Shown here: positions 11,131-30,321 of the stretch, piece after piece | Layout of the letters: every line of letters starts with the position of its first letter | How positions within the stretch are numbered: position 1 is the first letter of the stretch | From: Escherichia coli | Lineage (GTDB): Bacteria > Pseudomonadota > Gammaproteobacteria > Enterobacterales > Enterobacteriaceae | DNA length: 64,000 bases | Strand: one strand, 5' to 3' | NCBI RefSeq assembly: GCF_030384885.1 | Contig: NZ_CP128613.1 | The notes under the pieces: generated by a model | Seen by the model: the letters and a program-made list of their open reading frames with translations, nothing else | What the model was told of the DNA's origin: nothing | The model's database searches: none | Translations under genes and position numbers: made by a program

Positions 11131-11137
11131 TTTCTCT

Positions 11138-11168
11138 GGAAAAGAAAAAGGCCAGCGCGAGGCTGGCC
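11138..11168 (-). terminator. Probable rho-independent terminator of metK
   Basis: ggccagc/gctggcc hairpin followed by a T-run on the minus strand, 25 nt downstream of the metK stop. Confidence 0.5.
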
Positions 11169-11190
11169 TTTGAAAGCAGGTGAAGAAAGA

Positions 11191-12345
11191 TTACTTCAGA
11201 CCGGCAGCATCGCGCAGCAGCTGCGCTTTGTCGGTTTTTTCCCACGGGAAATGTTCACGACCAAAGTGACCGTATGCTGCGGTTTCTTTGTAGATCGGGT
11301 GCAGCAGATCCAGCATCTGAATCAGACCGTATGGACGCAGGTCAAAGAACTCACGTACCAGCAGAGTCAGTTGTTCAGAAGGCACTTTCTCGGTACCGAA
11401 AGTTTCCACCATGATGGAGGTCGGTTCAGCCACGCCGATTGCGTAGGAAACCTGAATTTCACAACGATCGGCCAGGCCAGCTGCAACGATGTTTTTCGCG
11501 ACATAACGTGCTGCGTACGCTGCGGAACGGTCCACTTTTGATGGATCTTTACCAGAGAATGCACCGCCACCGTGACGTGCCATGCCGCCGTAGGTATCAA
11601 CGATAATTTTACGACCAGTCAGACCGCAGTCACCCATCGGGCCGCCAATAACAAAACGTCCGGTCGGGTTGATGAAGAACTTGGTTGCGGAAGTCAGCCA
11701 TTCTGCGGGCAGAATCGGCTTGATGATCTCTTCCATTACCGCTTCTTGCAGCGATTTCTGGTCGATCTCTTCAGAGTGCTGAGTGGAAAGTACTACAGCA
11801 TCAATGCCAACGATTTTGCCGTCGTCATACTGGAAAGTCACCTGGCTTTTCGCGTCCGGGCGCAGCCACGGCAGAGTGCCGTTTTTACGTACTTCAGCCT
11901 GACGCTGAACCAGACGGTGTGCATAGGTGATAGGCGCTGGCATCAGCACGTCGGTTTCATTGGTTGCGTAGCCAAACATCAGACCCTGGTCGCCCGCGCC
12001 CTGTTCCAGCGGATCGGCACGGTCGACGCCCTGGTTGATATCAGGGGACTGTTTACCGATAGCGCTCAGGACCGCACAGGAGTTAGCGTCAAAGCCCATG
12101 TCGGAATGTACATAGCCAATTTCGCGAACGGTGTTACGGGTGATCTCTTCGATGTCTACCCAGGCGCTGGTGGTGATTTCACCGCCAACTAAAACCATGC
12201 CGGTTTTTACGTAGGTTTCGCAAGCAACACGTGCTTTCGGATCCTGTTCGAGGATCGCGTCTAAAACGGCATCAGAGATTTGGTCAGCAATTTTGTCAGG
12301 ATGCCCTTCAGAGACGGACTCGGACGTAAAAAGGTGTTTTGCCAT
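11191..12345 (-). CDS. metK: S-adenosylmethionine synthetase
   Basis: 384 aa from [22 protein letters not shown]; conserved GGGAFSGKD motif. Confidence 0.95.
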
Positions 12346-12385
12346 ATTTAATATCACCTAAAGAGAATTTGGTTAGCTCAAACTG

Positions 12386-12652
12386 TTGTGTGGATTTTCT
12401 GTGGTAGCGGATCCTACCACGACTCTGCAGGTTAAAAACACTGGCAGTCTGAGTGTTAATCGGTATGGATGGATTAACATCTGGATGGCTATTTTAGGTC
12501 AGTTCTTCACCCAATTTCCACTTTTTTTTGAATCGTGTCTCATTCTGTTAAAAACGTGGCTGGAAATTTTTCCTGACAATGCTGGCATTCTGCGTATTTA
12601 TCTTTTGCAATTTTCTGCCATTGTGGGGTATAAAACGCGGCGCGCGGCTTAA
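12386..12652 (+). CDS. Small hypothetical ORF in the metK-speA intergenic region (yqgD-like; doubtful)
   Basis: 88-aa ORF without recognisable domain; position corresponds to a small K-12 ORF annotated here. Confidence 0.2.
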
Positions 12653-12864
12653 ATAAAAAGCACACGACGTTTCTTTCGTGTTGCCACTTCCAGCCGGGTT
12701 GAAATCAGAGTTTTGGCTTGTGGGTTCGTCTTAACAGGCGGCCGTGGAGGTGATACGAAATAATGAACCGTTGTCTGCTGCTTAACCTGTCTCACCGTTC
12801 TGGTGAAGATTCGTTCCCCGCACTCTGCATCTCTGCTTTGCATACCTGCCGATGTTATACCCAT
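12649..12864 (-). CDS. Small hypothetical ORF (yqgC-like; doubtful)
   Basis: 71-aa ORF on the opposite strand of the speA leader; length matches a small K-12 ORF annotated here. Confidence 0.2.
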
Positions 12865-12999
12865 CTCGGCGCTTCTCAGGATTCAAGAGCTGGTTACAGT
12901 TACTGAGGACTGAACAAGGGCGCTCTTGTAAAAACAAGAGTTTTCTCGTGGTTTCGCCGAACTGTCACACTTACGTTCGGTTATGTGTTTAATAATGTT

Positions 13000-13131
13000 A
13001 TGAAAAAGAAACCGGTTGCGCAGTCGGAGCGTCAGCATACTTTGCTGGAAAATCCGTGTGCTTATGGGTTGTTATCGCAGTCCCAGGCTGCGATAGTCGT
13101 TAACTGTTTTACACTTAATAAAATAATTTGA
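13000..13131 (+). CDS. yqgB: 43-aa small protein YqgB in the speA leader
   Basis: ATG at 13000, 43 codons [43 protein letters not shown], stop 13129-13131 just upstream of the speA start; below the size cut-off of the ORF track. Confidence 0.7.
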
Positions 13132-13139
13132 GGTTCGCT

Positions 13140-15116
13140 ATGTCTGACGACATGTCTATGGGTTTGCCTTCGTCAGCGGGCGAACACGGTGTACTACGCT
13201 CCATGCAGGAGGTTGCAATGAGCTCCCAGGAAGCCAGCAAGATGCTGCGTACTTACAATATTGCCTGGTGGGGCAATAACTATTATGACGTTAACGAGCT
13301 GGGTCACATTAGCGTGTGCCCGGACCCGGACGTCCCGGAAGCTCGCGTCGATCTCGCGCAGTTAGTGAAAACTCGTGAAGCACAGGGTCAGCGTCTGCCT
13401 GCACTGTTCTGTTTCCCACAGATCCTGCAGCACCGTTTGCGTTCCATTAACGCCGCGTTCAAACGTGCGCGGGAATCCTACGGCTATAACGGCGATTACT
13501 TCCTCGTTTATCCGATCAAAGTTAACCAGCACCGCCGCGTGATTGAATCCCTGATTCATTCGGGCGAACCGCTGGGCCTGGAAGCCGGTTCCAAAGCTGA
13601 GTTGATGGCGGTACTGGCGCATGCTGGCATGACCCGTAGCGTCATCGTCTGCAATGGTTATAAAGACCGAGAATATATCCGCCTGGCATTAATTGGCGAG
13701 AAGATGGGCCATAAGGTCTATCTGGTCATTGAGAAGATGTCAGAAATCGCCATTGTGCTGGATGAAGCAGAACGTCTGAATGTCGTTCCTCGTCTGGGCG
13801 TGCGCGCGCGTCTGGCGTCTCAAGGTTCTGGCAAATGGCAGTCTTCTGGCGGGGAAAAATCGAAGTTCGGCCTGGCGGCGACTCAGGTACTGCAACTGGT
13901 TGAAACCCTGCGTGAAGCCGGACGTCTCGACAGCCTGCAACTGCTGCACTTCCACCTCGGTTCGCAGATGGCGAATATTCGCGATATCGCCACGGGCGTT
14001 CGTGAATCCGCGCGTTTCTATGTGGAACTGCACAAACTGGGCGTCAATATTCAGTGCTTCGACGTCGGCGGCGGTCTGGGCGTGGACTATGAAGGCACCC
14101 GTTCGCAGTCTGACTGCTCCGTAAACTACGGCCTCAATGAATACGCCAACAACATCATCTGGGCGATTGGTGATGCGTGTGAAGAAAATGGTCTGCCACA
14201 TCCGACGGTAATCACCGAATCGGGTCGTGCGGTGACTGCGCATCACACCGTGCTGGTGTCGAATATCATCGGCGTGGAACGTAACGAATACACGGTGCCG
14301 ACCGCGCCAGCAGAAGACGCACCGCGCGCGCTGCAAAGCATGTGGGAAACCTGGCAGGAGATGCACGAACCGGGAACTCGCCGTTCTCTGCGTGAATGGT
14401 TACACGACAGCCAGATGGATCTGCACGACATTCATATCGGCTATTCTTCGGGCACTTACAACCTGCAAGAACGCGCGTGGGCTGAGCAGCTTTATCTGAG
14501 CATGTGTCACGAAGTGCAAAAGCAGCTGGATCCGCAAAACCGCGCACATCGCCCGATTATCGACGAATTGCAGGAACGTATGGCGGACAAAATGTACGTC
14601 AACTTCTCGCTGTTCCAGTCGATGCCGGACGCATGGGGGATCGACCAGTTGTTCCCGGTATTGCCGCTGGAAGGGCTGAATCAAGTTCCGGAGCGACGCG
14701 CCGTGCTGCTGGATATTACCTGTGACTCTGACGGTGCCATCGACCACTATATCGATGGTGATGGTATTGCCACGACAATGCCTATGCCGGAGTACGATCC
14801 AGAGAATCCGCCGATGCTCGGTTTCTTTATGGTCGGCGCGTATCAGGAGATCCTCGGCAACATGCACAACCTGTTTGGTGATACCGAAGCGGTTGATGTG
14901 TTCGTCTTCCCTGACGGCAGCGTAGAAGTGGAACTGTCTGACGAAGGCGATACCGTGGCGGACATGCTGCAATATGTACAGCTCGATCCGAAAACGCTGT
15001 TAACCCAGTTCCGTGATCAAGTGAAGAAAACCGATCTTGATGCTGAACTGCAACAACAGTTCCTGGAAGAGTTCGAGGCAGGTTTGTACGGTTATACCTA
15101 TCTTGAAGATGAATAA
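13140..15116 (+). CDS. speA: Biosynthetic arginine decarboxylase
   Basis: 658 aa from [17 protein letters not shown]; PLP-dependent decarboxylase; track ORF begins 12 nt earlier at a TTG. Confidence 0.95.
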
Positions 15117-15135
15117 TTAAGATTATTCCGCTATC

Positions 15136-15175
15136 GGGTCGATTTATTTACGTAAATCGGCCCGCTTTCTTTTTA
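15136..15175 (+). terminator. Rho-independent terminator after speA
   Basis: 11-bp stem gggtcgattta/taaatcggccc with 6-nt loop, followed by a T-rich tract. Confidence 0.6.
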
Positions 15176-15261
15176 TATATTCTTAAAAATAATTTAGCTG
15201 CTTTCCTTATTGAATAATCTCCCTACAATCGCTGCATTAATTAAATGCAGAGGGAACGGTT

Positions 15262-15993
15262 ATGAAAAAATGGAAAGTACGTAGCGCGTTGGTGGCATTA
15301 GTCGTGCTGCTGGCCGGTTGTTCCAGTAATGCGCAGTATAATAGCAGTGCATCGGGCAATGTCGGCACCGCCTGGGGTGGGGATGTGCACTCAACGGTTC
15401 AGGGCGTATCTGCTGAACGAGCCTGGCGCGATCCGGCAGAGATGATCGTTATTAGTTATTCGACTAATGTTCCTTCCGGCTACGACCGCGTTTATAGCAT
15501 TCGTATTAACGAACTTGAATATGCTATTCGCGATGGTAATTTTAATTCTCTACCTATTACGCGGGTTTATAATTCATCAGGTAAAGAACTACGCTATATA
15601 GTCCATGCCAGAGTAGGAATGAATTACCAATTATATGTCCGCAATTACAGTCGTAACACCAACTACGAGATCGTTGCGACAGTTGATGGCCTGGATGTTC
15701 TCAATGGTAAACAAGGTTCCCTGAATAACAACGGCTATATTGTGAATGCCGGGGATTCGTTGGCGATTAAAGGATTCCGCAAAGATAAACATACCGAAGC
15801 GGCTTTTCAGTTCGCCAACGTTGCTGATTCCTACGCAGCCAATTCGGCGCAAGGCGATGTGCGTAATATCGGTGTAATCGGCTTTGCCGCCTTTGAATTA
15901 CAAGGCCCGGCGCAAAACGCGCTGCCACCGTGCTCTGGACAAGCGTTTCCGGCGGACAACAATGGCTATGCGCCGCCACCGTGTCGGAAATAG
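15262..15993 (+). CDS. Predicted lipoprotein of unknown function (accessory gene between speA and speB)
   Basis: 243-aa ORF; signal peptide plus lipobox LLAGC-SS; Asn/Tyr/Ser-rich mature part; own terminator downstream; AT-richer than neighbours. Confidence 0.7.
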   Translation: MKKWKVRSALVALVVLLAGCSSNAQYNSSASGNVGTAWGGDVHSTVQGVSAERAWRDPAEMIVISYSTNVPSGYDRVYSIRINELEYAIRDGNFNSLPITRVYNSSGKELRYIVHARVGMNYQLYVRNYSRNTNYEIVATVDGLDVLNGKQGSLNNNGYIVNAGDSLAIKGFRKDKHTEAAFQFANVADSYAANSAQGDVRNIGVIGFAAFELQGPAQNALPPCSGQAFPADNNGYAPPPCRK

Positions 15994-16058
15994 TAACCTC
16001 GCTTGATGCCTCGCCCATTTAAGGCGATAATTAGCACAAAATTGTGTTTCGCAAATCC

Positions 16059-16101
16059 AACCCTTCCTCGTCGGGCCTAACGACGCGGAAGGGTTTTTTT
16101 A
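16059..16101 (+). terminator. Rho-independent terminator after the lipoprotein gene
   Basis: cccttcc...ggaaggg stem-loop followed by ttttttt. Confidence 0.6.
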
Positions 16102-16128
16102 TATCGACTTTGTAATAGGAGTCCATCC

Positions 16129-17049
16129 ATGAGCACCTTAGGTCATCAATACGATAACTCACTGGTTTCCAACGCCTTTGGTTTTTTACGCCTGCCGATG
16201 AACTTCCAGCCGTACGACAGCGACGCCGACTGGGTGATTACCGGCGTGCCGTTCGATATGGCGACGTCAGGCCGTGCGGGTGGACGCCACGGTCCGGCGG
16301 CGATCCGTCAGGTTTCGACGAATCTGGCCTGGGAACACAACCGCTTCCCGTGGAATTTCGACATGCGCGAGCGTCTGAACGTGGTGGACTGCGGCGATCT
16401 GGTGTATGCCTTCGGCGATGCTCGTGAGATGAGCGAGAAGCTGCAGGCGCATGCCGAAAAGCTGCTGGCTGCCGGTAAGCGTATGCTCTCCTTCGGTGGT
16501 GACCACTTTGTTACCCTGCCGCTGCTGCGTGCTCATGCGAAGCATTTCGGCAAAATGGCGCTGGTACACTTTGACGCCCACACCGATACCTATGCGAACG
16601 GTTGTGAATTTGACCACGGCACTATGTTCTATACCGCGCCGAAAGAAGGTCTGATCGACCCGAATCACTCCGTACAGATTGGTATTCGTACCGAGTTTGA
16701 TAAAGACAACGGCTTTACCGTACTGGACGCCTGCCAGGTGAACGATCGCAGCGTGGATGACGTTATCGCCCAGGTGAAACAGATTGTAGGTGATATGCCA
16801 GTTTACCTGACCTTTGATATCGACTGCCTGGATCCTGCTTTCGCGCCGGGCACCGGTACGCCGGTGATCGGCGGCCTGACCTCCGATCGCGCCATTAAAC
16901 TGGTACGTGGCCTGAAAGATCTCAACATCGTTGGGATGGACGTAGTGGAAGTGGCTCCGGCATACGATCAGTCGGAAATCACCGCTCTGGCAGCAGCGAC
17001 GCTGGCGCTGGAGATGCTGTATATTCAGGCGGCGAAAAAGGGCGAGTAA
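16129..17049 (+). CDS. speB: Agmatinase (agmatine ureohydrolase)
   Basis: 306-aa [26 protein letters not shown]; arginase-family GGDH/DAHTD motifs. Confidence 0.95.
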
Positions 17050-17065
17050 GCGCCAGATGCGATGT

Positions 17066-17173
17066 CGCCCGTAGGCCGGATAAGATGCGTCAGCATCGCA
17101 TCCGGCATTGCGGACAGGGTAACAAATGTGCCATTCATGTCAGATGCGGCGTGAACGCCTTATCTGACCTACG
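17066..17173. repeat. BIME (REP units) between speB and loiP
   Basis: gtaggccggataagatgcgtcagcatcgcatccggca and cagatgcggcgtgaacgccttatctgacctacg. Confidence 0.6.
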
Positions 17174-17190
17174 TTCGGCACCACCAGGCT

Positions 17191-17949
17191 TTACTTAACC
17201 CCATCCGCGCTCATACGATCGCGAATATGCTGGGCGCGTTCGGCGGATGCCGGATGGTCGTCAAACATTGAGCTTTGGCGGCCTTCTTCCAGTTTCGCCA
17301 GTTTTTCAAAGCTGGTGGCAAGACCAGCCGGGCTGATGCCGCGTTGGCGCAGAAGATCGTAAGAATAATCATCGGCTTCTGCTTCCTGGCGCTGGGAGAA
17401 TTGCGAATTGACTAATTTCTCGCCCAAGTCACCAAGTTGCGATTGCGATAAACTGCCGACAATCCCGCCCGCAGAGGCCGCAGCTACTCGCACGGCATTT
17501 GTACCAAGTGCCACCTGCATCCCTTTCTTCACATGGCCTAACGCCACGTGCCCCATTTCGTGACCGATCACCGCTTCGACTTCGTTATCCGTCATCATAT
17601 CCATCAGCCCGCTATAGACGCGGATACAGCCGTTAGCCATTGCAAAGGCGTTCACATCCTTCGCCATATACACTTTGTAATTCACCGGCTGACCGTTGAT
17701 ATTGTTGCCTAGCGCATTGGCAATAGTTGTCAGACGTTTAGCGTATTCGCTATTGGCTGGCGCAATTGTCGCCTTGCTGTCCATCTCCTGACATGCCTGA
17801 TCGCTCAGGGCTTTCACCTGCGCATCACTCAAACTGTAAGCCTGAAAAGCTTCCGCTCCTGATGAGAGCAGTCCGTTGGAGTCCATATTCTGGCAACCGG
17901 TCAGTACCGTTGCCACGCTCATTGCTACCAATAAGGCGCGAATTTTCAT
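17191..17949 (-). CDS. loiP: M48-family metalloprotease lipoprotein LoiP (YggG)
   Basis: 252 aa from internal Met MKIRALLVAMSVATVLTGC (lipobox) of a 325-aa ORF; HEMGH zinc motif. Confidence 0.85.
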   Translation of the reverse strand: MKIRALLVAMSVATVLTGCQNMDSNGLLSSGAEAFQAYSLSDAQVKALSDQACQEMDSKATIAPANSEYAKRLTTIANALGNNINGQPVNYKVYMAKDVNAFAMANGCIRVYSGLMDMMTDNEVEAVIGHEMGHVALGHVKKGMQVALGTNAVRVAAASAGGIVGSLSQSQLGDLGEKLVNSQFSQRQEAEADDYSYDLLRQRGISPAGLATSFEKLAKLEEGRQSSMFDDHPASAERAQHIRDRMSADGVK

Positions 17950-20218: not shown

Positions 20219-20240
20219 TCGGTAAGATGCTTTGTGAGAA

Positions 20241-20266
20241 GGGCCGCGAAAGCGGCCCTTTTTTTA
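20241..20266 (+). terminator. Rho-independent terminator of tktA in the convergent gap
   Basis: gggccgc-gaaa-gcggccc hairpin followed by ttttttt; T-run overlaps the stop of the convergent SPFH gene. Confidence 0.55.
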
Positions 20267-21172
20267 CTTAGTAGAGATAAACGGAACTGTACTGCCGGGG
20301 ATCATGGTATCGGGTAGCTTACCGTCCCAACGCTCAGCAGTGGTGAGGGCAACAAGTCCGGGATTATCCCGCAGAGCTTCACCGCGCAGGCGGATCGCTT
20401 CTGCTTCAGCCGCACTTTTTAAACGAATAGTTTCAGCCTCTGCCGCGCCTCTTACGCGAATAGTCTCAGCTTCTGCTTTGGCTGCCGCCAGTTTACTGTC
20501 TGCTTCTGCCTGGGCCTGAGTTACCGCTATTTGCGCCTGGATTTTCTCTGTTTCCAGATTTTGCTTACGTGTGGCAATGGCGACTTCTGCTTTCATTCGA
20601 TCTTCAATCGATTTTTCATAAGCGTCAGAAAAATCAATATTTTCAATCTGGACACCATCAATCACCACCGGGCCAACAACGGCTTTACGCATTGCATTTT
20701 GCAGATCCTGAACCAGTTTTGTACGATCCTGTACCGCGCTGATGGCGGTATATTGGCCGAAAACGTTCTCCAGTTGAGTTGGCAACTGACGGACAATCAG
20801 ACGATCTTTTAATGCTTCAATGGTGTTGTAGGTGGTATAAACCGCGCCTGCTTCTGAAGGTTTAATGTGGAAGCTGACTGATACTGTCATTTGTGCCGGT
20901 TGCTGGTCGCGGCTGTAGGCCTGTAATCCCTGATAAACCACAGCCTGATTACGCGTGGAAATTTTCTCTACGCTTTCCATAAAAGGGATCTTAAAACCCA
21001 GACCCGGCTCGGCAACTTTTACGATTTTTCCGTAGCGCAGCAAAATGCCGCGTTCACCTTCATTAACGGTGTAATACGAGAGAAATGGCAGCACAACCAC
21101 GGTAAGCACGCCAATGGCGATAGCAATAGATTTTTGTGGGCGAAATGAGGTTATTGAAACAGGTGCTTTCAT
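20264..21172 (-). CDS. SPFH/band-7 (prohibitin/HflC-like) membrane protein, standalone
   Basis: 302-aa ORF; N-terminal TM helix SIAIAIGVLTVVVLPFLSYY, SPFH core, C-terminal Ala/Glu-rich coiled coil with repeated AEAETIRxxG units; RBS aaggaag 9 nt upstream. Confidence 0.8.
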   Translation of the reverse strand: MKAPVSITSFRPQKSIAIAIGVLTVVVLPFLSYYTVNEGERGILLRYGKIVKVAEPGLGFKIPFMESVEKISTRNQAVVYQGLQAYSRDQQPAQMTVSVSFHIKPSEAGAVYTTYNTIEALKDRLIVRQLPTQLENVFGQYTAISAVQDRTKLVQDLQNAMRKAVVGPVVIDGVQIENIDFSDAYEKSIEDRMKAEVAIATRKQNLETEKIQAQIAVTQAQAEADSKLAAAKAEAETIRVRGAAEAETIRLKSAAEAEAIRLRGEALRDNPGLVALTTAERWDGKLPDTMIPGSTVPFISTK

Positions 21173-21547
21173 GAGAATCTTCCTTGAGTAAAGTGTGGGA
21201 ATATGTCACATGAGGTGAGGAGAAAACAGCCAACAGGTGAGAATTCAGAATCTATAAAGGGGGAGAGCGAAAAACATCGGCTAAAAAAGTATGTTTTCGA
21301 ACATTCAATAGATAAATAGAGATATGCATCACAAATACATAGGCAGATAAAACATTGGTTTTGTGATAAACATAGCAAACACAAACTTGACTTTATAAGT
21401 ATAAATTTCATGTTGTTGTTATTTAACATTTTATTATTTTGGTTCATGTTTTTTTTCTTCTCGCGTGCCCAATTGCTTTCATTAAATCGCACGAGTATTT
21501 TATTTTTACCGCCGGACGGTACCCTAAAAATAAAATAAGGATAATTT
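21173..21547. other. Strongly AT-rich 375-bp tract between the SPFH gene and cmtB
   Basis: Visibly far below the ~50% GC of flanking genes; long A/T runs; likely promoter region for both divergent units. Confidence 0.6.
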
Positions 21548-21991
21548 ATGCGGCTTATTGATTATTTTCCAGAATCATCAATCTCAGTTATACATTCAGC
21601 AAAAGATTGGCAGGAAGCTATCAATTTCTCGATGGCATCATTGCTGGATAAAAACTATATCAGCGAGAATTACATTCAGGCTATTAAAGATTCCACCATT
21701 AACAATGGCCCTTATTATATTCTCGCACCAAGCGTGGCAATGCCTCATGCGCGACCGGAATGTGGGGCGCTTAAAACCGGGATGTCTTTGACGTTACTTA
21801 AACAAGGCGTTTATTTTCCGGGGAATGACGAACCGATTAAATTACTTATCGGTCTTTCTGCTGCCGATGCCGATTCGCACATTGGCGCTATTCAGGCGTT
21901 AAGTGAATTGCTGTGCGAAGAAGAAATACTTGAACAACTCTTAACTGCAACATCAGAAAAACAATTAGCGGACATTATCAGCCGCGAATAA
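21548..21991 (+). CDS. cmtB: Mannitol-type PTS enzyme IIA component (cryptic cmt system)
   Basis: 147-aa ORF MRLIDYFPESSISVIHSAKDWQEA; PTS EIIA-2 fold with conserved His (AMPHARPE). Confidence 0.85.
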   Translation: MRLIDYFPESSISVIHSAKDWQEAINFSMASLLDKNYISENYIQAIKDSTINNGPYYILAPSVAMPHARPECGALKTGMSLTLLKQGVYFPGNDEPIKLLIGLSAADADSHIGAIQALSELLCEEEILEQLLTATSEKQLADIISRE

Positions 21992-22018
21992 TGACTCTCT
22001 CCTCTACAGGATAATATT

Positions 22019-23407
22019 ATGGAAAACAAGTCTGCTCGTGCAAAGGTCCAGGCTTTTGGGGGCTTTTTGACTGCAATGGTCATTCCCAATATTGGTGCTT
22101 TTATTGCCTGGGGTTTTATAACGGCGTTATTTATTCCCACCGGTTGGTTGCCTAACGAACATTTCGCCAAAATTGTCGGCCCCATGATCACCTATTTATT
22201 ACCGGTGATGATTGGTTCTACCGGTGGCCATTTAGTCGGCGGTAAACGCGGCGCGGTAATGGGCGGAATAGGGACAATTGGTGTAATCGTCGGCGCAGAG
22301 ATTCCGATGTTCCTTGGCTCAATGATCATGGGACCGTTAGGTGGGCTGGTCATAAAATATGTCGATAAGGCACTGGAAAAACGCATACCTGCTGGTTTTG
22401 AGATGGTTATCAATAACTTCTCATTAGGTATCGCTGGGATGCTCCTTTGTCTGCTGGGTTTTGAAGTTATCGGCCCGGCGGTGTTAATTGCCAATACTTT
22501 CGTCAAAGAGTGTATTGAGGCGCTGGTACATGCGGGCTATCTGCCTTTGCTGTCAGTCATCAATGAACCGGCGAAAGTGCTTTTCCTCAATAACGCGATA
22601 GATCAGGGCGTCTATTACCCGTTAGGGATGCAACAGGCTTCAGTTAACGGTAAATCCATCTTCTTTATGGTGGCGTCCAACCCTGGGCCTGGCTTAGGGC
22701 TGCTGCTGGCATTTACCTTGTTTGGTAAAGGGATGAGTAAACGTTCTGCGCCTGGGGCGATGATTATTCACTTCCTCGGCGGCATCCACGAACTGTATTT
22801 CCCGTATGTGCTGATGAAGCCACTGACCATTATTGCCATGATTGCGGGCGGTATGTCTGGCACCTGGATGTTTAACTTACTGGACGGTGGTCTGGTGGCT
22901 GGTCCAAGTCCGGGGTCTATCTTTGCTTACCTTGCACTGACGCCGAAAGGCTCGTTCCTGGCGACAATTGCCGGTGTTACGGTAGGTACCCTGGTGTCCT
23001 TTGCTATCACTTCCGTAATACTGAAGATGGAAAAAACGGTGGAAACGGAGAGCGAAGATGAGTTTGTGCAGTCCGCCAATGCGGTTAAGGCGATGAAACA
23101 AGAAGGTACATTCTCGTTAAGCCGGGTTAAGCGTATCGCCTTTGTTTGCGATGCGGGAATGGGCTCTAGCGCGATGGGCGCAACCACCTTCCGTAAGCGC
23201 CTGGAAAAAGCGGGGCTGGCAATAGAAGTAAAACATTACGCGATAGAAAACGTGCCTGCAGATGTGGATATCGTCGTTACTCACGCTAGTCTGGAAGGGC
23301 GCGTGAAACGTGTGACGGATAAACCGCTGATATTGATTAATAACTATATTGGCGATCCCAAACTCGACACTTTATTTAATCAATTAACCGCTGAACATAA
23401 AAACTGA
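22019..23407 (+). CDS. cmtA: Mannitol-type PTS enzyme IICB component (cryptic cmt system)
   Basis: 462-aa ORF; polytopic EIIC followed by EIIB domain (FVCDAGMGSS). Confidence 0.85.
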   Translation: MENKSARAKVQAFGGFLTAMVIPNIGAFIAWGFITALFIPTGWLPNEHFAKIVGPMITYLLPVMIGSTGGHLVGGKRGAVMGGIGTIGVIVGAEIPMFLGSMIMGPLGGLVIKYVDKALEKRIPAGFEMVINNFSLGIAGMLLCLLGFEVIGPAVLIANTFVKECIEALVHAGYLPLLSVINEPAKVLFLNNAIDQGVYYPLGMQQASVNGKSIFFMVASNPGPGLGLLLAFTLFGKGMSKRSAPGAMIIHFLGGIHELYFPYVLMKPLTIIAMIAGGMSGTWMFNLLDGGLVAGPSPGSIFAYLALTPKGSFLATIAGVTVGTLVSFAITSVILKMEKTVETESEDEFVQSANAVKAMKQEGTFSLSRVKRIAFVCDAGMGSSAMGATTFRKRLEKAGLAIEVKHYAIENVPADVDIVVTHASLEGRVKRVTDKPLILINNYIGDPKLDTLFNQLTAEHKN

Positions 23408-23421
23408 TTGCCGAGGTAAAA

Positions 23422-24699
23422 ATGAAAACCAAAGTTGCTGCTATTTATGGCAAGCGAGATGTCCGTCTGCGCGAATTTGAACTGCCCAAAATTACCGATA
23501 ATGAACTGCTGGTGAGTGTAATTTCTGACAGTGTGTGTTTATCGACCTGGAAAGCGGCGTTACTCGGTAGCGAACATAAACGGGTGCCCGACGATTTAGA
23601 AAATCATCCGGTCATTACCGGGCATGAATGTGCCGGGATTATTGTTGAAGTGGGGAAAAATCTTACCGACAAATATAAAAAAGGCCAACGTTTTGTATTG
23701 CAACCGGCGATGGGGCTACCAAGCGGGTATTCTGCGGGATACAGCTACGAATATTTTGGCGGTAATGCTACCTATATGATTATTCCAGAGGTAGCCATTA
23801 ATTTGGGCTGCGTATTACCGTATCACGGATCTTATTTTGCTGCGGCGTCTCTGGCAGAGCCGATGTGCTGCATTATTGGCGCTTATCATGCCAATTATCA
23901 CACCACGCAATATGTTTATGAGCATCGCATGGGCGTGAAACCTGGTGGCAATATTGCGCTGCTGGCGTGTGCGGGCCCGATGGGGATAGGCGCTATCGAT
24001 TACGCTATTCACGGCGGCATACAACCGTCGCGGGTAGTGGTGGTCGATATCGACGACAAACGCCTGGCACAGGTGCAGAAGCTGCTGCCGGTGGAGCTGG
24101 CGGCCAGCAAAGGCATTGAGCTGATATATGTGAATACCAAAGGAATGGCCGATCCGGTACAGAAGCTGCGGGCGCTGACGGATGATGCCGGGTTCGATGA
24201 CATTTTTGTTTATGCGGCGGTGCCTGCTGTCGTTGAGATGGCTGACGAATTACTGGCGGAAGATGGCTGCCTGAACTTCTTTGCCGGTCCGACGGATAAA
24301 AACTTCAAAGTGCCGTTTAATTTCTACAACGTCCATTACAACAGTACGCACGTCGTCGGTACATCGGGTGGTTCAACGGACGATATGAAAGAGGCGATTG
24401 CCCTGAGCGCCACGGGGCAGTTGCAACCGTCGTTTATGGTGACGCATATCGGTGGCCTGGATGCAGTGCCAGAAACCGTTCTCAATTTACCGGATATCCC
24501 CGGTGGTAAAAAACTCATTTACAACGGCGTTACCATGCCGCTCACTGCCATTGCCGATTTTGCCGAAAAAGGCAAAACAGATCCGCTGTTTAAAGAGCTT
24601 GCGCGGCTGGTTGAGGAAACGCACGGCATCTGGAATGAACAGGCCGAGAAATATCTGCTGGCGCAATTTGGCGTTGATATCGGGGAGGCCGCGCAATGA
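23422..24699 (+). CDS. yggP: Zinc-dependent polyol/alcohol dehydrogenase-like protein
   Basis: 425-aa ORF; MDR-type dehydrogenase motifs (HECAG, GAGPMG); synteny with cmtBA. Confidence 0.8.
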   Translation: MKTKVAAIYGKRDVRLREFELPKITDNELLVSVISDSVCLSTWKAALLGSEHKRVPDDLENHPVITGHECAGIIVEVGKNLTDKYKKGQRFVLQPAMGLPSGYSAGYSYEYFGGNATYMIIPEVAINLGCVLPYHGSYFAAASLAEPMCCIIGAYHANYHTTQYVYEHRMGVKPGGNIALLACAGPMGIGAIDYAIHGGIQPSRVVVVDIDDKRLAQVQKLLPVELAASKGIELIYVNTKGMADPVQKLRALTDDAGFDDIFVYAAVPAVVEMADELLAEDGCLNFFAGPTDKNFKVPFNFYNVHYNSTHVVGTSGGSTDDMKEAIALSATGQLQPSFMVTHIGGLDAVPETVLNLPDIPGGKKLIYNGVTMPLTAIADFAEKGKTDPLFKELARLVEETHGIWNEQAEKYLLAQFGVDIGEAAQ

Positions 24700-25661
24700 T
24701 GTCCCTGGCGTGGCCATTATTTCGCGTTACGGAGCAGGCAGCGTTGGCTGCCTGGCCGCAAACCGGATGTGGCAACAAAAATAAAATTGATGGCCTGGCG
24801 GTCACCGCGATGCGCCAGGCATTAAACGATGTCGCTTTTCGTGGGCGAGTGGTTATCGGCGAGGGAGAAATTGACCATGCGCCGATGCTGTGGATTGGCG
24901 AGGAGGTGGGCAAAGGCGATGGGCCAGAAGTCGATATCGCGGTTGATCCCATTGAAGGTACGCGGATGGTGGCGATGGGGCAGAGCAATGCGCTGGCGGT
25001 CATGGCTTTCTCCCCTCGAGATAGCCTGTTACACGCGCCCGATATGTATATGAAAAAACTGGTTGTTAATCGGCTGGCGGCGGGCGCGATTGATCTGTCT
25101 TTGCCTCTGGCGGACAACTTGCGCAACGTGGCGAAAGCGTTAGGCAAACCGCTGGACAAGCTGCGTATGGTTACGCTGGATAAACCGCGCCTGAGTGCCG
25201 CAATTGAGGAAGCGACGCAACTGGGCGTGAAGGTTTTTGCCCTGCCGGATGGCGATGTTGCCGCCAGCGTGCTGACCTGCTGGCAGGATAATCCTTACGA
25301 TGTGATGTACACCATCGGCGGTGCGCCGGAGGGCGTGATTTCTGCCTGTGCCGTTAAAGCATTAGGCGGGGATATGCAGGCCGAGCTGATTGACTTTTGT
25401 CAGGCTAAAGGGGATTACACGGAAAATCGGCAGATTGCAGAGCAGGAACGCCAGCGTTGCAAGGCAATGGGCGTTGACGTTAACCGTGTGTACTCGCTCG
25501 ATGAACTGGTGAGGGGGAACGATATCCTCTTTAGCGCTACGGGCGTGACGGGCGGTGAGTTGGTGAATGGTATCCAACAGACGGCGAATGGGGTGCGGAC
25601 GCAGACATTACTGATCGGCGGCGCGGACCAAACGTGTAATATAATAGACTCCCTGCATTGA
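24696..25661 (+). CDS. yggF: Fructose-1,6-bisphosphatase class II (GlpX paralogue)
   Basis: 321-aa ORF; GlpX-family motifs; 4-nt overlap with yggP. Confidence 0.85.
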   Translation: MMSLAWPLFRVTEQAALAAWPQTGCGNKNKIDGLAVTAMRQALNDVAFRGRVVIGEGEIDHAPMLWIGEEVGKGDGPEVDIAVDPIEGTRMVAMGQSNALAVMAFSPRDSLLHAPDMYMKKLVVNRLAAGAIDLSLPLADNLRNVAKALGKPLDKLRMVTLDKPRLSAAIEEATQLGVKVFALPDGDVAASVLTCWQDNPYDVMYTIGGAPEGVISACAVKALGGDMQAELIDFCQAKGDYTENRQIAEQERQRCKAMGVDVNRVYSLDELVRGNDILFSATGVTGGELVNGIQQTANGVRTQTLLIGGADQTCNIIDSLH

Positions 25662-25682
25662 TGGTGATCTATCGGAAGACCA

Positions 25683-26192
25683 ATGGCGACGCTGACAGAA
25701 GATGATGTGCTTGAGCAACTGGACGCACAGGACAATTTATTGTCATTTATGAAAACTGCACATGCCATTTTGCTCCAGGGGATACGCCAGTTTCTGCCGT
25801 CGCTGTTTGTCGATAACGATGAAGAGATCGTGGAATATGCAGTGAAGCCGTTACTCGCTCAAAGCGGCCCGCTTGACGATATTGATGTTGCGCTACGTTT
25901 GATTTTTGCACTGGGGAAAATGGACAAATGGCTGTACGCCGATATCACGCACTTTTCCCAGTTCTGGCATTACCTGAATGAACAGGATGAAACGCCCGGA
26001 TTTGCCGATGACATTACCTGGGATTTTATCAGCAACGTCAATAGCATAACCCGCAATGCGACGCTCTATGACGCGTTAAAAGCGATGAAGTTCGCTGATT
26101 TCGCCGTCTGGTCAGAGGTGCGTTTTAGTGGGATGGTCAAAACGGCGCTGACGCTGGCAGTAACGACCACCTTAAAGGAATTAACGCCGTGA
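25683..26192 (+). CDS. yggD: MtlR-like protein YggD (annotated as fumarase E in E. coli)
   Basis: 169-aa ORF MATLTEDDVLEQLDAQDNLLSF; synteny. Confidence 0.75.
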   Translation: MATLTEDDVLEQLDAQDNLLSFMKTAHAILLQGIRQFLPSLFVDNDEEIVEYAVKPLLAQSGPLDDIDVALRLIFALGKMDKWLYADITHFSQFWHYLNEQDETPGFADDITWDFISNVNSITRNATLYDALKAMKFADFAVWSEVRFSGMVKTALTLAVTTTLKELTP

Positions 26193-26902
26193 AAATTGAC
26201 TTAACGGTGAATGGTCTGAAGGTACAAGCACAGTACCATGTTGATGAGATAGAAAATGTACATAAACCGTTGCTGCGTATGTTGGCGGCCTTACAGACGG
26301 TAAATCCGCAGCGGCGTACCGTGGTTTTTCTTTGCGCTCCGCCGGGGACGGGTAAATCTACCCTAACCACTTTCTGGGAATATCTCACGCAACAAGACCC
26401 GGAACTACCCACTATTCAGACGCTGCCGATGGATGGTTTTCACCATTACAATAACTGGCTGGATGCGCATCAATTGCGCCCCTTTAAAGGCGCACCAGAG
26501 ACATTCGATGTGGCAAAACTGGTGGAAAATCTGCGCCAGGTAATGGAAGGGGATTGTACGTGGCCGCAGTACGATCGACAAAAGCATGAGCCTGTTGAAG
26601 ATGCGTTGCACGTTACCGCACCACTCGTCATCGTCGAAGGAAACTGGTTGTTGCTGGACGACGAGAAGTGGTGCCAGCTTGCGCAATTTTGTGATTTCTC
26701 GATCTTTATCAACGCGCCAGCTACTGCGTTGCAGGAACGACTGGTGGGGCGCAAGCTGGCGGGAGGGTTATCGCTGGCAGACGCAGAAGCCTTTTATGAC
26801 CGTACCGATGGGCCGAATGTTCGCCGGGTGCTGGAAGAGAGTCTGCCTGCAAATTTGACCTTAATGATGACCGCTACGGGTGAATATCGTCTGGTGGATT
26901 AA
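26189..26902 (+). CDS. yggC: Putative P-loop kinase YggC
   Basis: 237-aa ORF with Walker A PPGTGKST; 4-nt overlap with yggD. Confidence 0.75.
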   Translation: MKIDLTVNGLKVQAQYHVDEIENVHKPLLRMLAALQTVNPQRRTVVFLCAPPGTGKSTLTTFWEYLTQQDPELPTIQTLPMDGFHHYNNWLDAHQLRPFKGAPETFDVAKLVENLRQVMEGDCTWPQYDRQKHEPVEDALHVTAPLVIVEGNWLLLDDEKWCQLAQFCDFSIFINAPATALQERLVGRKLAGGLSLADAEAFYDRTDGPNVRRVLEESLPANLTLMMTATGEYRLVD

Positions 26903-27584
26903 CGTTCCTGATTACACCATCTTCCAGTCGCACCACACGAGAGAAATGACGCCGGGTAAATGCGGCGTCATGACTGATTGCTACGACGCTCGTGCCTCGC
27001 TGGCGGCACTTTTCCAGCCAGCTTTCAAACACGCTCATCCAATTTTCGTCAAAATCCCGACTCGGCTCGTCCAGCAGCAATAGCGGCGGAGAGAGTGCTT
27101 CCAGGCAGGCGACGGCGACCATCCGTCGCTGCGCACTATGCAGATCTAACGGATGCGCGCTGGCAGTGTCTGCTAACTGACAGCATTGCAGGGCAGCATT
27201 GGTACGTTGAGTGATTTCATCCGCCAGGCATTTTTGCAGTTTCAAACCAAATGCGATCTCGTCAGCGACGGTGCTGTGAAAAAGCTGGTTTTCCGCTTCC
27301 TGAAACAGTACGCCAATCTTTGCTGCACGTTGGCGGTTTTTCAGGTTTTTCATCGCCTGTTGTTGCAGTATAACCGTACCGGTTGTGGGCGTAAGAAGAC
27401 CTGCCATTACTCGTAACAGCGTCGATTTTCCCGCGCCATTGTCGCCGGTCAGCGCCAACCATTCACCTTGTTTGAGTTGCAGAGAAATGTCGCAAAGACA
27501 ATCCGTTGCCGCGCCAGGCCAGCGATAAGACATCTGATTTAACGTTAACATAGTGGCTGGAGCGCTCCGTTTTGCAATTGCCAC
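26874..27584 (-). CDS. ECF/ABC transporter ATPase subunit (A2-like, degenerate signature motif)
   Basis: 236-aa ORF (alternative start Met12 at 27551, overlapping upstream stop as ATGnTAA); Walker A GDNGAGKST, Walker B LLLLDEP, H-loop ISHD; signature LHSAQRR instead of LSGGQ; 3' end overlaps yggC convergently. Confidence 0.75.
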   Translation of the reverse strand: MAIAKRSAPATMLTLNQMSYRWPGAATDCLCDISLQLKQGEWLALTGDNGAGKSTLLRVMAGLLTPTTGTVILQQQAMKNLKNRQRAAKIGVLFQEAENQLFHSTVADEIAFGLKLQKCLADEITQRTNAALQCCQLADTASAHPLDLHSAQRRMVAVACLEALSPPLLLLDEPSRDFDENWMSVFESWLEKCRQRGTSVVAISHDAAFTRRHFSRVVRLEDGVIRNVNPPDDIHP

Positions 27585-28228
27585 GCTTGCTGGCAGTAGT
27601 TCAGGAAAGGTGTGCGATGACGTTCAAAAAGAATAATCAGCGAACCACGTTCAAACGCCCAGTGTTGTAAGCGCTGCAACAGCATTTCGCTGGCCTGCGG
27701 CGTCAGGCGACTAAAGGCTTCATCAAGAATTAATAGTTTTGGCTGCATCGCGATGGCGCAGGCGATGACCACGCGCTGTGTCTCTCCACCGGAGAGTGTT
27801 GCCGGGTGACGATGGCGCAACGGCTGGCACTCGGTCAGAGTCAGGGCGGCATCAATCCGCGCCATAATCTCCTCTTCAGCAAGACACAGATTTTCTGGCC
27901 CAAAGGCAACTTCTTCTTCCACGCTAAAGGTACAGCCGGAGAGCTGCAAATAGGGCGATTGCTGAACGAGCTGGATGGTGGCGGATTGTTCATTAAGCGG
28001 GAGATACCCAATGGGCGTACCGAGAAGCGTCCCCGTGCCGGTTATCTCTCCTGGCAGAAAGTCCGGATACCAGCCCGCCATCAGTTGCGCCAGCGTACTT
28101 TTGCCACAGCCGTTGTCGCCAAAGATGGCGACTATCCCCGGTTTGACATAGTGAAAGTCATAACAGAACGGAGGGTGCGTTGAGTGTGTCGGGCAATAGC
28201 GAAACTGTTCTAACGTAACCATATCCAC
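27545..28228 (-). CDS. ECF/ABC transporter ATPase subunit (A1-like)
   Basis: 227-aa ORF; Walker A GDNGCGKST, signature LSGGETQR, Walker B LLILDEA. Confidence 0.75.
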   Translation of the reverse strand: MDMVTLEQFRYCPTHSTHPPFCYDFHYVKPGIVAIFGDNGCGKSTLAQLMAGWYPDFLPGEITGTGTLLGTPIGYLPLNEQSATIQLVQQSPYLQLSGCTFSVEEEVAFGPENLCLAEEEIMARIDAALTLTECQPLRHRHPATLSGGETQRVVIACAIAMQPKLLILDEAFSRLTPQASEMLLQRLQHWAFERGSLIILFERHRTPFLNYCQQAWQLQNGALQPLC

Positions 28229-28917
28229 GCTCCGAATTCTGCCAGCATCAGCAAGATCATGGCGTAACGTGCCACTTTTTCCAGGTTACTGTCAGGCGGT
28301 GCCCATAACGTAGTGCGCCGGTTGTGGATCCGAAATGCCCGCATATCCAGCGCCGCACCACGGATAGCCAGATCGTTTAGCGCATTGTGTGTTAGCGGAA
28401 TAATTAGCGCGGGTATAGCACGTAAACGCTGATACCAGCCCTCATCCAGCGGCACGCCACGGGCGCGCTGCGCTTCATGAATAATCGCTAATTGCCGTTT
28501 TAACTGCTCAACGACCAACAAAGGCCCGGCGAACAGATAAGCGACGCCCGGCGGCAGGCGAGAAGCAAACAAAGCGCGGATAAAACGTTGCACTGGGACG
28601 AATTGCATCCACAACTGCGAGGTTGAAACAATCGCGAGAATCCGCAGCCAGAGCGTAATAGCATGCGTCCACCGTTCTGGCGAGCGTGGCGTGCCGTTTA
28701 GCCATTCTGTCAGCCAGCCACCGTGTACCAGCCACAGTCCAGCCCCCAGCGAGAACATCAGCCAGACAACATATTTTGCCCGCCGCCGCGTGGCCTTTAG
28801 CGCAATAAGGCAGAAAAAGGTCGCCGCGCTATAGACTGTCAGTATTGTCTGTGTGGGCAGGATAAGCGTGGTGCAGGCCGCCAGCGCCCACAGCGTTAGG
28901 GATGTAAACGGATGCAT
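28210..28917 (-). CDS. ECF transporter transmembrane (T) component, CbiQ/EcfT family
   Basis: 235-aa polytopic ORF with C-terminal AQRARG and AIRGAALDMRAF motifs typical of EcfT; start abuts stop of upstream gene. Confidence 0.75.
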   Translation of the reverse strand: MHPFTSLTLWALAACTTLILPTQTILTVYSAATFFCLIALKATRRRAKYVVWLMFSLGAGLWLVHGGWLTEWLNGTPRSPERWTHAITLWLRILAIVSTSQLWMQFVPVQRFIRALFASRLPPGVAYLFAGPLLVVEQLKRQLAIIHEAQRARGVPLDEGWYQRLRAIPALIIPLTHNALNDLAIRGAALDMRAFRIHNRRTTLWAPPDSNLEKVARYAMILLMLAEFGAWIWLR

Positions 28918-29499
28918 TTAGCGCACGGCAGCCATTGCCGGAAAATGGCGCGTGGTGCGAATCGGCAGCTGACGCAGTAAAAGCCAGACAATCACCGCTG
29001 TAAGAATTTTATCGACCAGGTTTGCGCCTATCACCGTAATCGCCACCGACTCCACCAGGTTTTGCCCCATAGAGTGCATCCAGGCAACGAACAAATCGGC
29101 TCCGCTACCGGTGACACCGCCGAACAGCGCAGTACGCAGCGGTACAGCGACGACCGTTACTGCAAGCGTAATAATCACGCCGCTGACAACGACTTTTGGC
29201 AGGGTGCGAAACCAACCCGCTCGCGCCAGCCAACCGGCGACCAAGCCAATAACCATCGCCACGGGGGCAAAGGCGGCGGCGATCGGGTCGGTGAGCAATC
29301 CCCAGAGTAAATTGGTCAGTAAGCCGGTCAGCATCCCGATCACCGGACCAAGCAGTACCGCGCTAATAAGTGTGCCGATGGAGTCGAGAAATATAGGTAA
29401 TTTGACCATGCTGGCCAGTTGCCCGCCAATCATATTGATGGCGATAGAGATAACAATCAACACCAGTGCTTGACTGGAAAAGTGGCGACGCGCCATAAG
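28918..29499 (-). CDS. ECF transporter substrate-specific (S) component-like membrane protein
   Basis: About 193 aa from Met33 (ORF could start at 29595); about six TM helices; LPIFLDSIGT motif resembling ECF S components (YkoE/ThiW-like); substrate unknown. Confidence 0.65.
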   Translation of the reverse strand, partial: LMARRHFSSQALVLIVISIAINMIGGQLASMVKLPIFLDSIGTLISAVLLGPVIGMLTGLLTNLLWGLLTDPIAAAFAPVAMVIGLVAGWLARAGWFRTLPKVVVSGVIITLAVTVVAVPLRTALFGGVTGSGADLFVAWMHSMGQNLVESVAITVIGANLVDKILTAVIVWLLLRQLPIRTTRHFPAMAAVR

Positions 29500-29518
29500 A
29501 AAACCTCTCTGAAAGTAG

Positions 29519-29950
29519 TTATTTAACGGGGGAAATATGCAATTCGTCGTAACCAGAAAGCGCGCAAGGTTGGCGGCTAAACGCCAGCTCCTCAAGGCAG
29601 CCGATCACCAGTTCAAGCGTGGTCCGCACGGTACAGCCGGGCATCATATGACCGCCAAGTATCGTGCCGTGTGGATCGGAAACGCAGAGATGAAGATGTT
29701 CACCACTCTGTTCCAGTGTGCCGTTCAATGCGATGACTTCGAACTTACCGCTTAGTAGGGCCGTGTTTTCTTGCCCGGCATAGCGTAAGGCGACGTCAGT
29801 CAGACTGCCGGTACAACCTGCAATCCACGCGGCGTGGAGTTGTTGTTGCTGCGCGAAGGCGCGTAATTGGGAGAGAACTTCCTGTCCTGGGAGCAGGCGC
29901 AGCGCGTAAAAGCGTGCGGAGGAAGAATATGGGTAGGGCAATGTCATCAT
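29519..29950 (-). CDS. DUF296/PPC-domain protein (first gene of the ECF module)
   Basis: 143-aa ORF; pattern RLLPGQEVLSQL...AWIAGCTGSL...LSGKFEVIALNGTL...HLHLCVSD...GGHMMPGCTVRTTLELVI fits the PPC (DUF296) fold consensus. Confidence 0.7.
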   Translation of the reverse strand: MMTLPYPYSSSARFYALRLLPGQEVLSQLRAFAQQQQLHAAWIAGCTGSLTDVALRYAGQENTALLSGKFEVIALNGTLEQSGEHLHLCVSDPHGTILGGHMMPGCTVRTTLELVIGCLEELAFSRQPCALSGYDELHISPVK

Positions 29951-30321
29951 TGGAGTACTCCGAAACTCGGACGTATTGCGGATAATATCGACGCTGCATC
30001 AGTCATATTCTGATATAAGTCAGGGTTTGTGACGGCACAACGAAAAGATTTTGCTACGCTTATTCGTGATTCTGCAAAGTGGAATAAATTCCACAGGGGC
30101 GGGGCTGAAAACGTGACGTAAGTCAGATAATTGTCTTCTTTGACTGGACAATCATTCCTTTTATTCCACGTTTCGCTTATCCTAGCTGAAGCGTTTCAGT
30201 CGATTAAATGTTCGACAATTAACCAATCAGTCGCAGTTTGCGACAGGTAAGGTTTCCCCGGACGATTTGCTGGATTACTCTGTCTGGCAAATTTGCTCAG
30301 GGAAAACCTTGCAGGAGATCT

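Follow-up and report, generated by a model that had tools for sequence, protein, structure and literature searches.

The cmtBA-yggPFDC operon is complete and under purifying selection

We analyzed a 64,000-nucleotide stretch of Escherichia coli DNA (RefSeq assembly GCF_030384885.1, contig NZ_CP128613.1; hereafter the window) that carries, at positions 21548-26902, the phosphotransferase system (PTS) gene cluster cmtBA-yggPFDC. The list of open reading frames (ORFs) contains six + strand genes in this interval, in the order cmtB, cmtA, yggP, yggF, yggD and yggC, with successive intergenic distances of 27, 14, -4, 21 and -4 bp. An initial annotation, made from the sequence alone, had described six co-oriented genes with short gaps or overlaps, and the ORF list confirms this arrangement. 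The order and strand of the six genes are the same as in E. coli K-12 (b2934-b2928), with tkt on one side and epd on the other, indicating that the two clusters are orthologous; the loci also share an 82-bp leader and the geometry of a pair of CRP-like boxes upstream of cmtB. The present strain differs from K-12 in having an added SPFH gene upstream of the cluster and a retained ECF/PPC block downstream of it. The same six genes are found in the RefSeq annotation of E. coli 2013C-4282 (NZ_CP027579.1), a human stool isolate from the USA that is 100% identical to the window.

The first two genes encode PTS components. The cmtB product (21548..21991) is an enzyme IIA of the mannitol/fructose class whose phospho-His67 lies in a VAMPHA motif (NF007358; 320 bits against an NCBIfam cut-off of 192), and the cmtA product (22019..23407) is an enzyme IICB with phospho-Cys377 in the loop VCDAGMGSSAM (NCBIfam scores of 593 bits against 589 and, for the IIC-Mtl model TIGR00851, 480 against 468). 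YggP (23422..24699) is a Zn-dependent medium-chain dehydrogenase (MDR) with Cys39 and a GHE motif at residues 67-69; it has no equivalog model, is assigned by its Pfam domains (ADH_N and ADH_zinc_N), and is 97.6% identical to K-12 YggP. The remaining genes encode a paralogue of GlpX-type class II fructose-1,6-bisphosphatase (yggF, 24696..25661; TIGR00330, 585 bits against 259; PDB 1ni9), an MtlR-family protein without a DNA-binding domain (yggD, 25683..26192, annotated as fumE; 331 bits against 167; PF05068, PDB 3c8g and 6kcr) and a P-loop kinase of a PanK/Udk-like family with the Walker A motif GTGKST (yggC, 26189..26902; NF006742, 511 bits against 402). The curated NCBIfam models, and Pfam in the case of YggP, bear out the gene identities given by the initial annotation, and we also agree with its view that the function of the cluster is poorly defined in E. 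coli. Its description of YggD as MtlR-like is supported by PF05068, but it overlooked both the fumarase E name and the link to MtlR-type regulation.

The catalytic motifs are all intact (CmtB His67, CmtA Cys377 in CDAGMGSS, YggC GTGKST, YggP Cys39 and GHE). Amino-acid identity to K-12 is 95-99% for five of the genes and 82% for yggC, and the ratio of nonsynonymous to synonymous divergence from K-12 (dN/dS) is 0.02-0.24 across the six genes, with dS of up to 0.28. Of 5426 complete E. coli genomes, 5425 carry the 5.2-kb cluster, 5388 of them with coverage of at least 80%. In E. coli WP4-W18-ESBL-09, yggF (27900-28215 of the comparison locus) is an annotated truncated pseudogene ~640 bp shorter than its counterpart in the window and the five other genes are intact, which fits yggF as a dispensable member of the cluster. 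From these data, we conclude that the six genes are intact K-12 orthologues under purifying selection, and that cmtBA-yggPFDC is a known core E. coli operon that is complete, functional-looking and ordinary in the present strain. GC skew is strongly positive (0.10-0.16) over 22000-26000 and ~0.00-0.05 in the adjoining kilobases.

YggD is an MtlR paralogue that retains the CRP-contacting residues of MtlR

Lee et al. (Nucleic Acids Research, July 2026; PMC13421365) reported that MtlR, which has no DNA-binding domain, represses mtl. In their work, an MtlR dimer docks on two CRP dimers that are 43-46 bp apart (optimum 44-45 bp), docking depends on MtlR residues R167 and L178, and the dephosphorylated IIB domain of the transporter MtlA sequesters MtlR, leading to release. 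They found that any two CRP sites with the proper spacing can bind MtlR, an engineered malK operator among them, and claimed that the mtl operator is the sole E. coli site with such spacing; their paper makes no mention of YggD or cmt.

YggD is an MtlR paralogue by its Pfam match (PF05068, 3.5e-52) and its structural relatives (PDB 3c8g and 6kcr), and its profile matches MtlR 6kcr over the full length (1.9e-21). Both MAFFT and profile hidden Markov model alignments place YggD R147 and L158 opposite MtlR R167 and L178, and these two residues are among 24 invariant positions in 17 YggD orthologues with identity down to 31%. We observed no match of YggD to a fumarase/aspartase or Fe-S fumarase family; its sole Pfam family is MtlR, and its sole PDB relatives belong to the MtlR family.

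Two CRP-like boxes 44 bp apart precede cmtB

Upstream of cmtB, we identified two CRP-like boxes, neither assigned to a strand, that each match 8 of 10 consensus positions. The distal box (AGAGATATGCATCACA, 21318..21333) is centered 222.5 bp before the cmtB ATG and the proximal box (TGTGATAAACATAGCA, 21362..21377) 178.5 bp before it, for a spacing of 44 bp. Applied to mtl, this scanner finds all five published CRP sites, spaced 43, 44, 73 and 44 bp apart. The K-12 allele likewise contains two CRP-like boxes (8/10 each) with 44-bp spacing at an equal distance to the ATG. All 19 Enterobacteriaceae sequences have a pair at exactly 44 bp, and pairs at 45 bp are present in Rahnella, Budvicia and Serratia (Yersiniaceae, Budviciaceae) and in most Vibrionaceae. 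By chance, 0.6% of regions are expected to contain a pair at exactly 44 bp and 2.4% a pair at 43-46 bp; the background measured on 1695 control windows is 26 (1.5%). Conservation is 1.38 bits at box positions and 0.66 bits in the spacer, and the cmtB promoter has been found to be CRP-dependent in K-12 (PMC3105977, PMC12412646). Beyond the boxes, a CAA (21306-21308) 12 nt 5' of the distal box and a TTG (21387-21389) 9 nt 3' of the proximal box are each invariant in 19/19 Enterobacteriaceae, and this pair gives the CRP-box element a symmetric outline.

A candidate core promoter is provided by an extended -10-like element, TGtTATTTA (21417..21425, + strand), in the same register as TGtTATATA of K-12; if this element is used, the two boxes would lie near -62.5 and -106.5. 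Scans of both intergenic regions for consensus sigma-70 promoters and for terminators found nothing, and these scans also missed the evident tkt terminator. The conserved leader that follows (82 bp, 21466..21547, + strand; 98% identical to K-12) contains an AT-rich palindrome around a small GC hairpin and then a Shine-Dalgarno sequence. The palindrome is a perfect 13-nt AT-rich inverted repeat (TATTTTATTTTTA at 21496-21508 and TAAAAATAAAATA at 21525-21537) that is kept in most Enterobacteriaceae and could serve as a DNA operator. We rejected RNA structure as an explanation for this leader, as there was no Rfam match and no RNAalifold consensus, the single-sequence fold gave z = -1.15, and covariation was weak, with mainly invariant A-U pairs.

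Between -263 and -83 upstream of cmtB (window 21285-21465), identity to K-12 is 51%, in the same register, and between -170 and -83 it is 41%. The step from 51% to 98% at the leader marks another abrupt change of allele, on the opposite side of the operon from the one in yggC described below. We considered CytR-type control, for which tandem CRP boxes and uridine induction might speak, and set it aside: the spacer is poorly conserved (0.66 bits), and a TGCAA motif of K-12 is not found in the present strain when the sequences are compared. We also rejected a 107-aa ORF (21169..21492, - strand) in this AT-rich intergenic region as a gene, as it has no Pfam match and no PGAP annotation and overlaps the conserved cmtB control elements.

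The cmt and mtlA-mtlD-mtlR operons share a mannitol-class enzyme II with a near-identical IIB loop, an operon-encoded MtlR-family protein and, by sequence likeness, CRP-type boxes 44 bp apart and the conserved CRP-contacting Arg and Leu. The two operons differ in that mtl has five CRP boxes and cmt two, in that IIA is a separate protein in cmt and a kinase and a bisphosphatase are added, and in that the cmt dehydrogenase is the Zn-MDR YggP, which is unrelated to MtlD. They differ further in that the acidic surface of MtlR that binds HPr and IIB is not conserved in YggD.

Gene neighborhood suggests a polyol phosphate pathway

CmtA is 53% identical to residues 6-471 of MtlA. The phosphorylation sites CmtA Cys377 and CmtB His67 align with MtlA Cys384 and His554, placing the transporter in the mannitol/fructose class of PTS enzymes II, and the IIB loops of CmtA and MtlA agree at 10 of 11 positions. 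Among the enzymes, YggF passes TIGR00330 and aligns end to end with GlpX (PDB 1ni9, 5.9e-111), from which it differs as a paralogue that lies inside a PTS operon and is missing from some versions of the cluster. The nearest solved structure to YggC is 3c8u, a "fructokinase" (2e-22), and comparative genomics has predicted YggC to be a sugar/polyol kinase (PMC3223725). For YggP, we found no close solved structure and no close characterized relative; its homologues are 55-67% identical across phyla, and its score against the GatD model (19.5 bits) is far under the cut-off of 550.

Using a YggP-anchored scan of species-representative genomes followed by tblastn synteny, we surveyed the module in other bacteria. 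The cmtB-cmtA-yggP-yggC block is kept as a unit in Enterobacteriaceae, Vibrionaceae and Lachnospiraceae, and the order cmtB-cmtA-yggP-yggD-yggC is found in Vibrio, Aliivibrio, Photobacterium, Rahnella, Budvicia and Serratia. The yggD gene accompanies the block in Gammaproteobacteria and is present in 35 of 38 cmt-type loci. Three Lachnospiraceae loci have the order cmtB-yggC-cmtA-yggP behind a PRD-type regulator, which stands in for yggD in Firmicutes; one of these, in Hespellia, continues with a class II fructose bisphosphate aldolase, a PfkB kinase and a second YggP. Outside Enterobacteriaceae, yggF was seen in just one Serratia; the clusters of Vibrio, Rahnella and Budvicia lack it, and in 12 Vibrionaceae loci a PHP phosphatase follows yggC in its stead.

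The survey also brought up other settings. In Rahnella (8078-17822 in two comparison loci), the cmt-type cluster directly adjoins a canonical mtlA-mtlD-mtlR operon, and in several Vibrionaceae (Vibrio/Photobacterium) transaldolase and transketolase genes lie immediately 5' of cmtB, which echoes the tkt adjacency of E. coli. YggP homologues that are 55-59% identical occur without any PTS genes in metagenome-assembled genomes of Clostridia, Lentisphaerae and Spirochaetes. Many of these adjoin a set resembling 2-oxoacid dehydrogenases (fused E1 alpha-beta, E2 and E3), and their contexts also include a fusion of class II aldolase and short-chain dehydrogenase/reductase, a DeoR regulator and PHP-domain proteins. 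This PTS-less setting is apparently a different, uncharacterized context for the same enzyme family.

The pathways for galactitol (gat) and L-sorbose (sor) combine uptake through a PTS with three enzymes: a Zn-dependent polyol-phosphate/ketose-phosphate dehydrogenase, a kinase for sugar phosphates and a class II aldolase. The cmt cluster would share this logic, with an aldolase and a PfkB kinase beside YggP in the Hespellia locus; it differs in that its own kinase, YggC, is a PanK/Udk-like P-loop protein and not a PfkB. From this gene neighborhood, we propose that phosphoenolpyruvate, enzyme I and HPr would phosphorylate CmtB at His67 and, through it, CmtA at Cys377, and that CmtA would import and phosphorylate a mannitol-like polyol. 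YggP would then oxidize the polyol phosphate to a ketose phosphate, YggC would add a second phosphate, and a class II aldolase would split the resulting bisphosphate. YggF, or the PHP-family phosphatase in Vibrio, would form a branch that works on the bisphosphate, for example by supplying hexose-6-phosphate. Mannitol itself is unlikely to be the main cmt substrate.

A model for regulation of cmt by YggD and CRP

As a whole, the explanation that we favor, with confidence somewhat above an even chance, is that of an intact core operon for a polyol pathway, regulated by YggD and CRP and bordered by polymorphic flanks. In its regulatory part, transcription of the cmt operon would rely on CRP at the two boxes 44 bp apart, a YggD dimer would dock on the two CRP dimers as MtlR does and so block activation, and repression would lift once transport dephosphorylates the transporter. 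Whether YggD is such a CRP-anchored anti-activator of its own operon we consider about evenly balanced on the present alignments and box geometry. MtlR might also act at the cmtB operator. The fuller proposal, to which we give a little less than an even chance, is that cmt is a second natural target of MtlR-type CRP-anchored repression by YggD (possibly by MtlR), the cargo under this control being a polyol pathway with a core of CmtBA, YggP and YggC in which a PanK/Udk-like kinase takes the place of PfkB.

Several observations weigh against this model. The boxes match only 8/10 consensus positions in both the present strain and K-12, and there is no mapped transcription start. The 19 enterobacterial upstream sequences are homologous and are not independent observations; 9 of 40 cmtB upstream regions (six Vibrionaceae and three Firmicutes) have no pair at threshold, and those pairs that were found in Vibrionaceae are weak (7-8/10). 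MtlR binds HPr and IIB through seven acidic residues (E108, E111, E118, E119, D123, E133 and E140); YggD keeps none of them, having A86, T89, H96, Y97, Q101, I111 and N118 at these positions of the alignment, so that the release step of an MtlR-like model is unsupported. ChIP-exo (chromatin immunoprecipitation with exonuclease digestion) detected no YggD binding, in a study that cites the protein as fumarase E (PMC8464067), and PcmtA was reported to be uridine-induced and not polyol-induced (PMC12412646). The metabolic scheme, for its part, is based on gene neighborhood alone, with YggP lacking a characterized close relative, and the kinase and the bisphosphatase, encoded in the same operon, would seem to oppose each other.

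Both flanks of the operon are common polymorphisms

Downstream of the cluster, window positions 26834-30100 stand in place of 132 bp of K-12, in which the yggC-epd interval is 284 bp. This segment contains a five-gene ECF/PPC block (26874..29950, - strand) that is convergent on yggC and absent from K-12. It encodes two ECF ATPases (26874-27551 and 27545-28222), an ECF T component (28210-28917), an ECF S component (28918-29496) that resembles the CD3073 family (136 bits, under the cut-off of 180) and a PPC/PCC-domain (DUF296-type) protein (29519-29950). The convergent ATPase gene overlaps the end of yggC by 29 bp, and homology to K-12 resumes at 30101..30321 (+ strand) with an epd upstream region common to both strains.

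The ECF block is present in 3330 of 5426 E. coli genomes (61%), and 10 of the 17 Enterobacteriaceae loci have an ECF/PPC block in the yggC-epd interval. E. albertii, Superficieibacter, two Salmonella subspecies (arizonae and diarizonae), Phytobacter and five Citrobacter share the gene order tkt-[cmt cluster]-[ECF/PPC]-epd-pgk-fbaA. As the block occupies the same site across genera, synteny indicates that it is ancestral and was lost or replaced in K-12, which represents the derived state. The last ~255 nt of yggC (26648-26902; 10822-11076 in the K-12 comparison locus) exist as two alleles that are 47-73% identical, with saturated synonymous sites. The 3' third of yggC in the present strain is the ECF-linked allele, with 94% amino-acid identity to E. 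albertii and 64% to K-12, and yggC is only 82% identical to K-12 because this third is a different, saturated allele. By these comparisons, loss of the ECF block in K-12 appears to have been accompanied by replacement of the 3' third of yggC. No donor of the K-12 yggC 3' end was found among the 17 sampled enterobacterial genera, which are equidistant from it at 66-71% nucleotide identity, and searches for scars of ECF genes in the K-12 spacer and for relatives of the K-12-specific 230 bp gave nothing at E <= 1e-3.

Upstream of the cluster, window positions 20220-21465 stand in place of 230 bp of K-12, in which the tkt-cmtB interval is 313 bp. They contain an SPFH/Band-7 gene of the prohibitin family (20264..21172, - strand; PF01145, 5.6e-32; RefSeq annotation) that is absent from K-12 and whose stop codon abuts, on the opposite strand, the tkt terminator (20241..20265, + strand), which we read from the sequence as the hairpin GGGCCGC-GAAA-GCGGCCC with a run of T after it. 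Of 5426 E. coli genomes, 1830 (34%) have the SPFH gene. Among the 17 loci from Enterobacteriaceae, only those of E. coli and E. albertii have it, and the tkt-cmtB interval is ~300 bp, as in K-12, in all other genera sampled, which argues that the SPFH gene is a true, old insertion.

Both flanks thus differ from K-12, as the initial annotation had expected, and the outcome that would have refuted it, identity of the flanks to K-12, did not occur; it had treated both as candidate accessory insertions. For the upstream flank, insertion is supported; for the downstream flank, the difference from K-12 stands, but the recurrence of the block at the same site in other Enterobacteriaceae contradicts an accessory insertion. 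Given their frequencies among E. coli genomes, neither flank is special to the present strain, and both differences are common population polymorphisms. There is no integrase, transposase or insertion sequence element among the annotated or predicted genes of the flanks and there are no boundary repeats; flank GC is 0.50-0.56, and composition is not atypical.

The surrounding sequence has a mosaic history. Fifteen other genomes match window 40-60 kb without a difference, and over 14-36 kb identity of 99% or more is reached only by the sequence itself and by strain ST3. Compared with WP4-W18-ESBL-09, the window is 3-6% different from 1 to ~31 kb and shows no differences from ~31.3 kb on; compared with ST3, there is a break at ~11.1 kb. 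Recombination breakpoints accordingly lie at ~11100 and ~31300, with near-identical relatives 100% identical from 31.3 kb onward. These breaks put the operon, together with its two flanks, within a single rare haplotype block of recombinant origin that only ST3 shares; identity of the block is 92% to E. albertii and 95-96% to K-12 and WP4-W18-ESBL-09. Elsewhere in the window, the speA-speB interval contains a 243-aa hypothetical gene (15262-15993, + strand) that is absent from K-12, has no Pfam/NCBIfam match and is annotated too in ST3 and WP4-W18-ESBL-09, and the fbaA-mscS interval lacks, at window ~33908, ~130 bp that are present in K-12 (comparison locus 14948-15078).

Alternative explanations

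The fumarase E name raises the question of whether YggD regulates at all. If YggD were a true fumarase (FumE) without a regulatory role, the operon would be under CRP alone or under MtlR in trans. The RefSeq name and the ChIP-exo study, which cites fumarase activity and reports no DNA binding, speak for this, and the ability of MtlR to bind any rightly spaced CRP pair (PMC13421365) means that it could act at cmtB. The absence of a ChIP signal for YggD under non-inducing conditions is uninformative, however, as MtlR alone does not bind DNA. Since YggD has only the MtlR fold (PF05068; 3c8g) and matches no fumarase family, is tied to the PTS cluster in nearly all cmt-type loci with a PRD regulator instead in Firmicutes, and keeps R147 and L158 invariant, we regard the FumE explanation as unlikely. 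We also find it improbable that the flanking accessory segments alter regulation of the cluster in this strain relative to K-12, as the initial annotation had suggested. In its favor, only the 82-bp leader is K-12-like and the sequence before it is strongly diverged, the SPFH gene is divergently transcribed from the same 375-bp AT-rich intergenic region, and yggC overlaps a convergent ATPase gene. Against it, the two strains agree in box quality, in the spacing of the boxes and their distance from the ATG, and in the geometry of the leader; the SPFH insertion stops 33 bp or more short of the distal box; and between one and two thirds of E. coli share the arrangement. Comparison of the cmtB control architecture in this strain and K-12 argues for conservation.

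Two further explanations concern the role of the operon as a whole. Reviews give CmtAB as a second mannitol enzyme II, and the identity of CmtA to MtlA and its score in the mannitol IIC model would agree with a redundant, poorly expressed mannitol transporter that feeds MtlD, with the ygg genes as unrelated passengers. We consider this decidedly improbable, given that mannitol-induced antibiotic tolerance requires mtlA and not cmtA (PMC11656735) and that, over three bacterial families and into Firmicutes, the partners of cmtBA are yggP and yggC rather than mtlD; the side-by-side cmt and mtl systems of Rahnella likewise argue for different substrates. That the cluster is a decaying cryptic remnant without current function is very improbable. 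The historical label "cryptic", the failure of the intergenic scans to find a consensus sigma-70 promoter and the internal deletion of yggF in WP4-W18-ESBL-09 would fit decay. Standing against these are six intact ORFs with their catalytic motifs kept and the low dN/dS noted above, the near-universal presence of the cluster in E. coli, and the shift in tobramycin minimal inhibitory concentration that follows deletion of cmtA in K-12 (PMC12412646).

Implications for the cmt operon and for MtlR-type regulation

The gene cluster itself, which every E. coli genome annotation includes, was already known and adds nothing new; the new item is the predicted YggD-CRP operator at cmtB. As by-products, the polarity of the flank events is corrected, and a prediction is obtained for an orphan operon and for YggD, a protein that appears to be misnamed. 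That K-12 is derived 3' of yggC matters when this strain serves as the baseline for calling "insertions". If the model of repression by YggD and CRP is correct, it would account for cmt being "cryptic" and would be at odds with the statement of Lee et al. (2026) that E. coli has no site of this kind other than the mtl operator.

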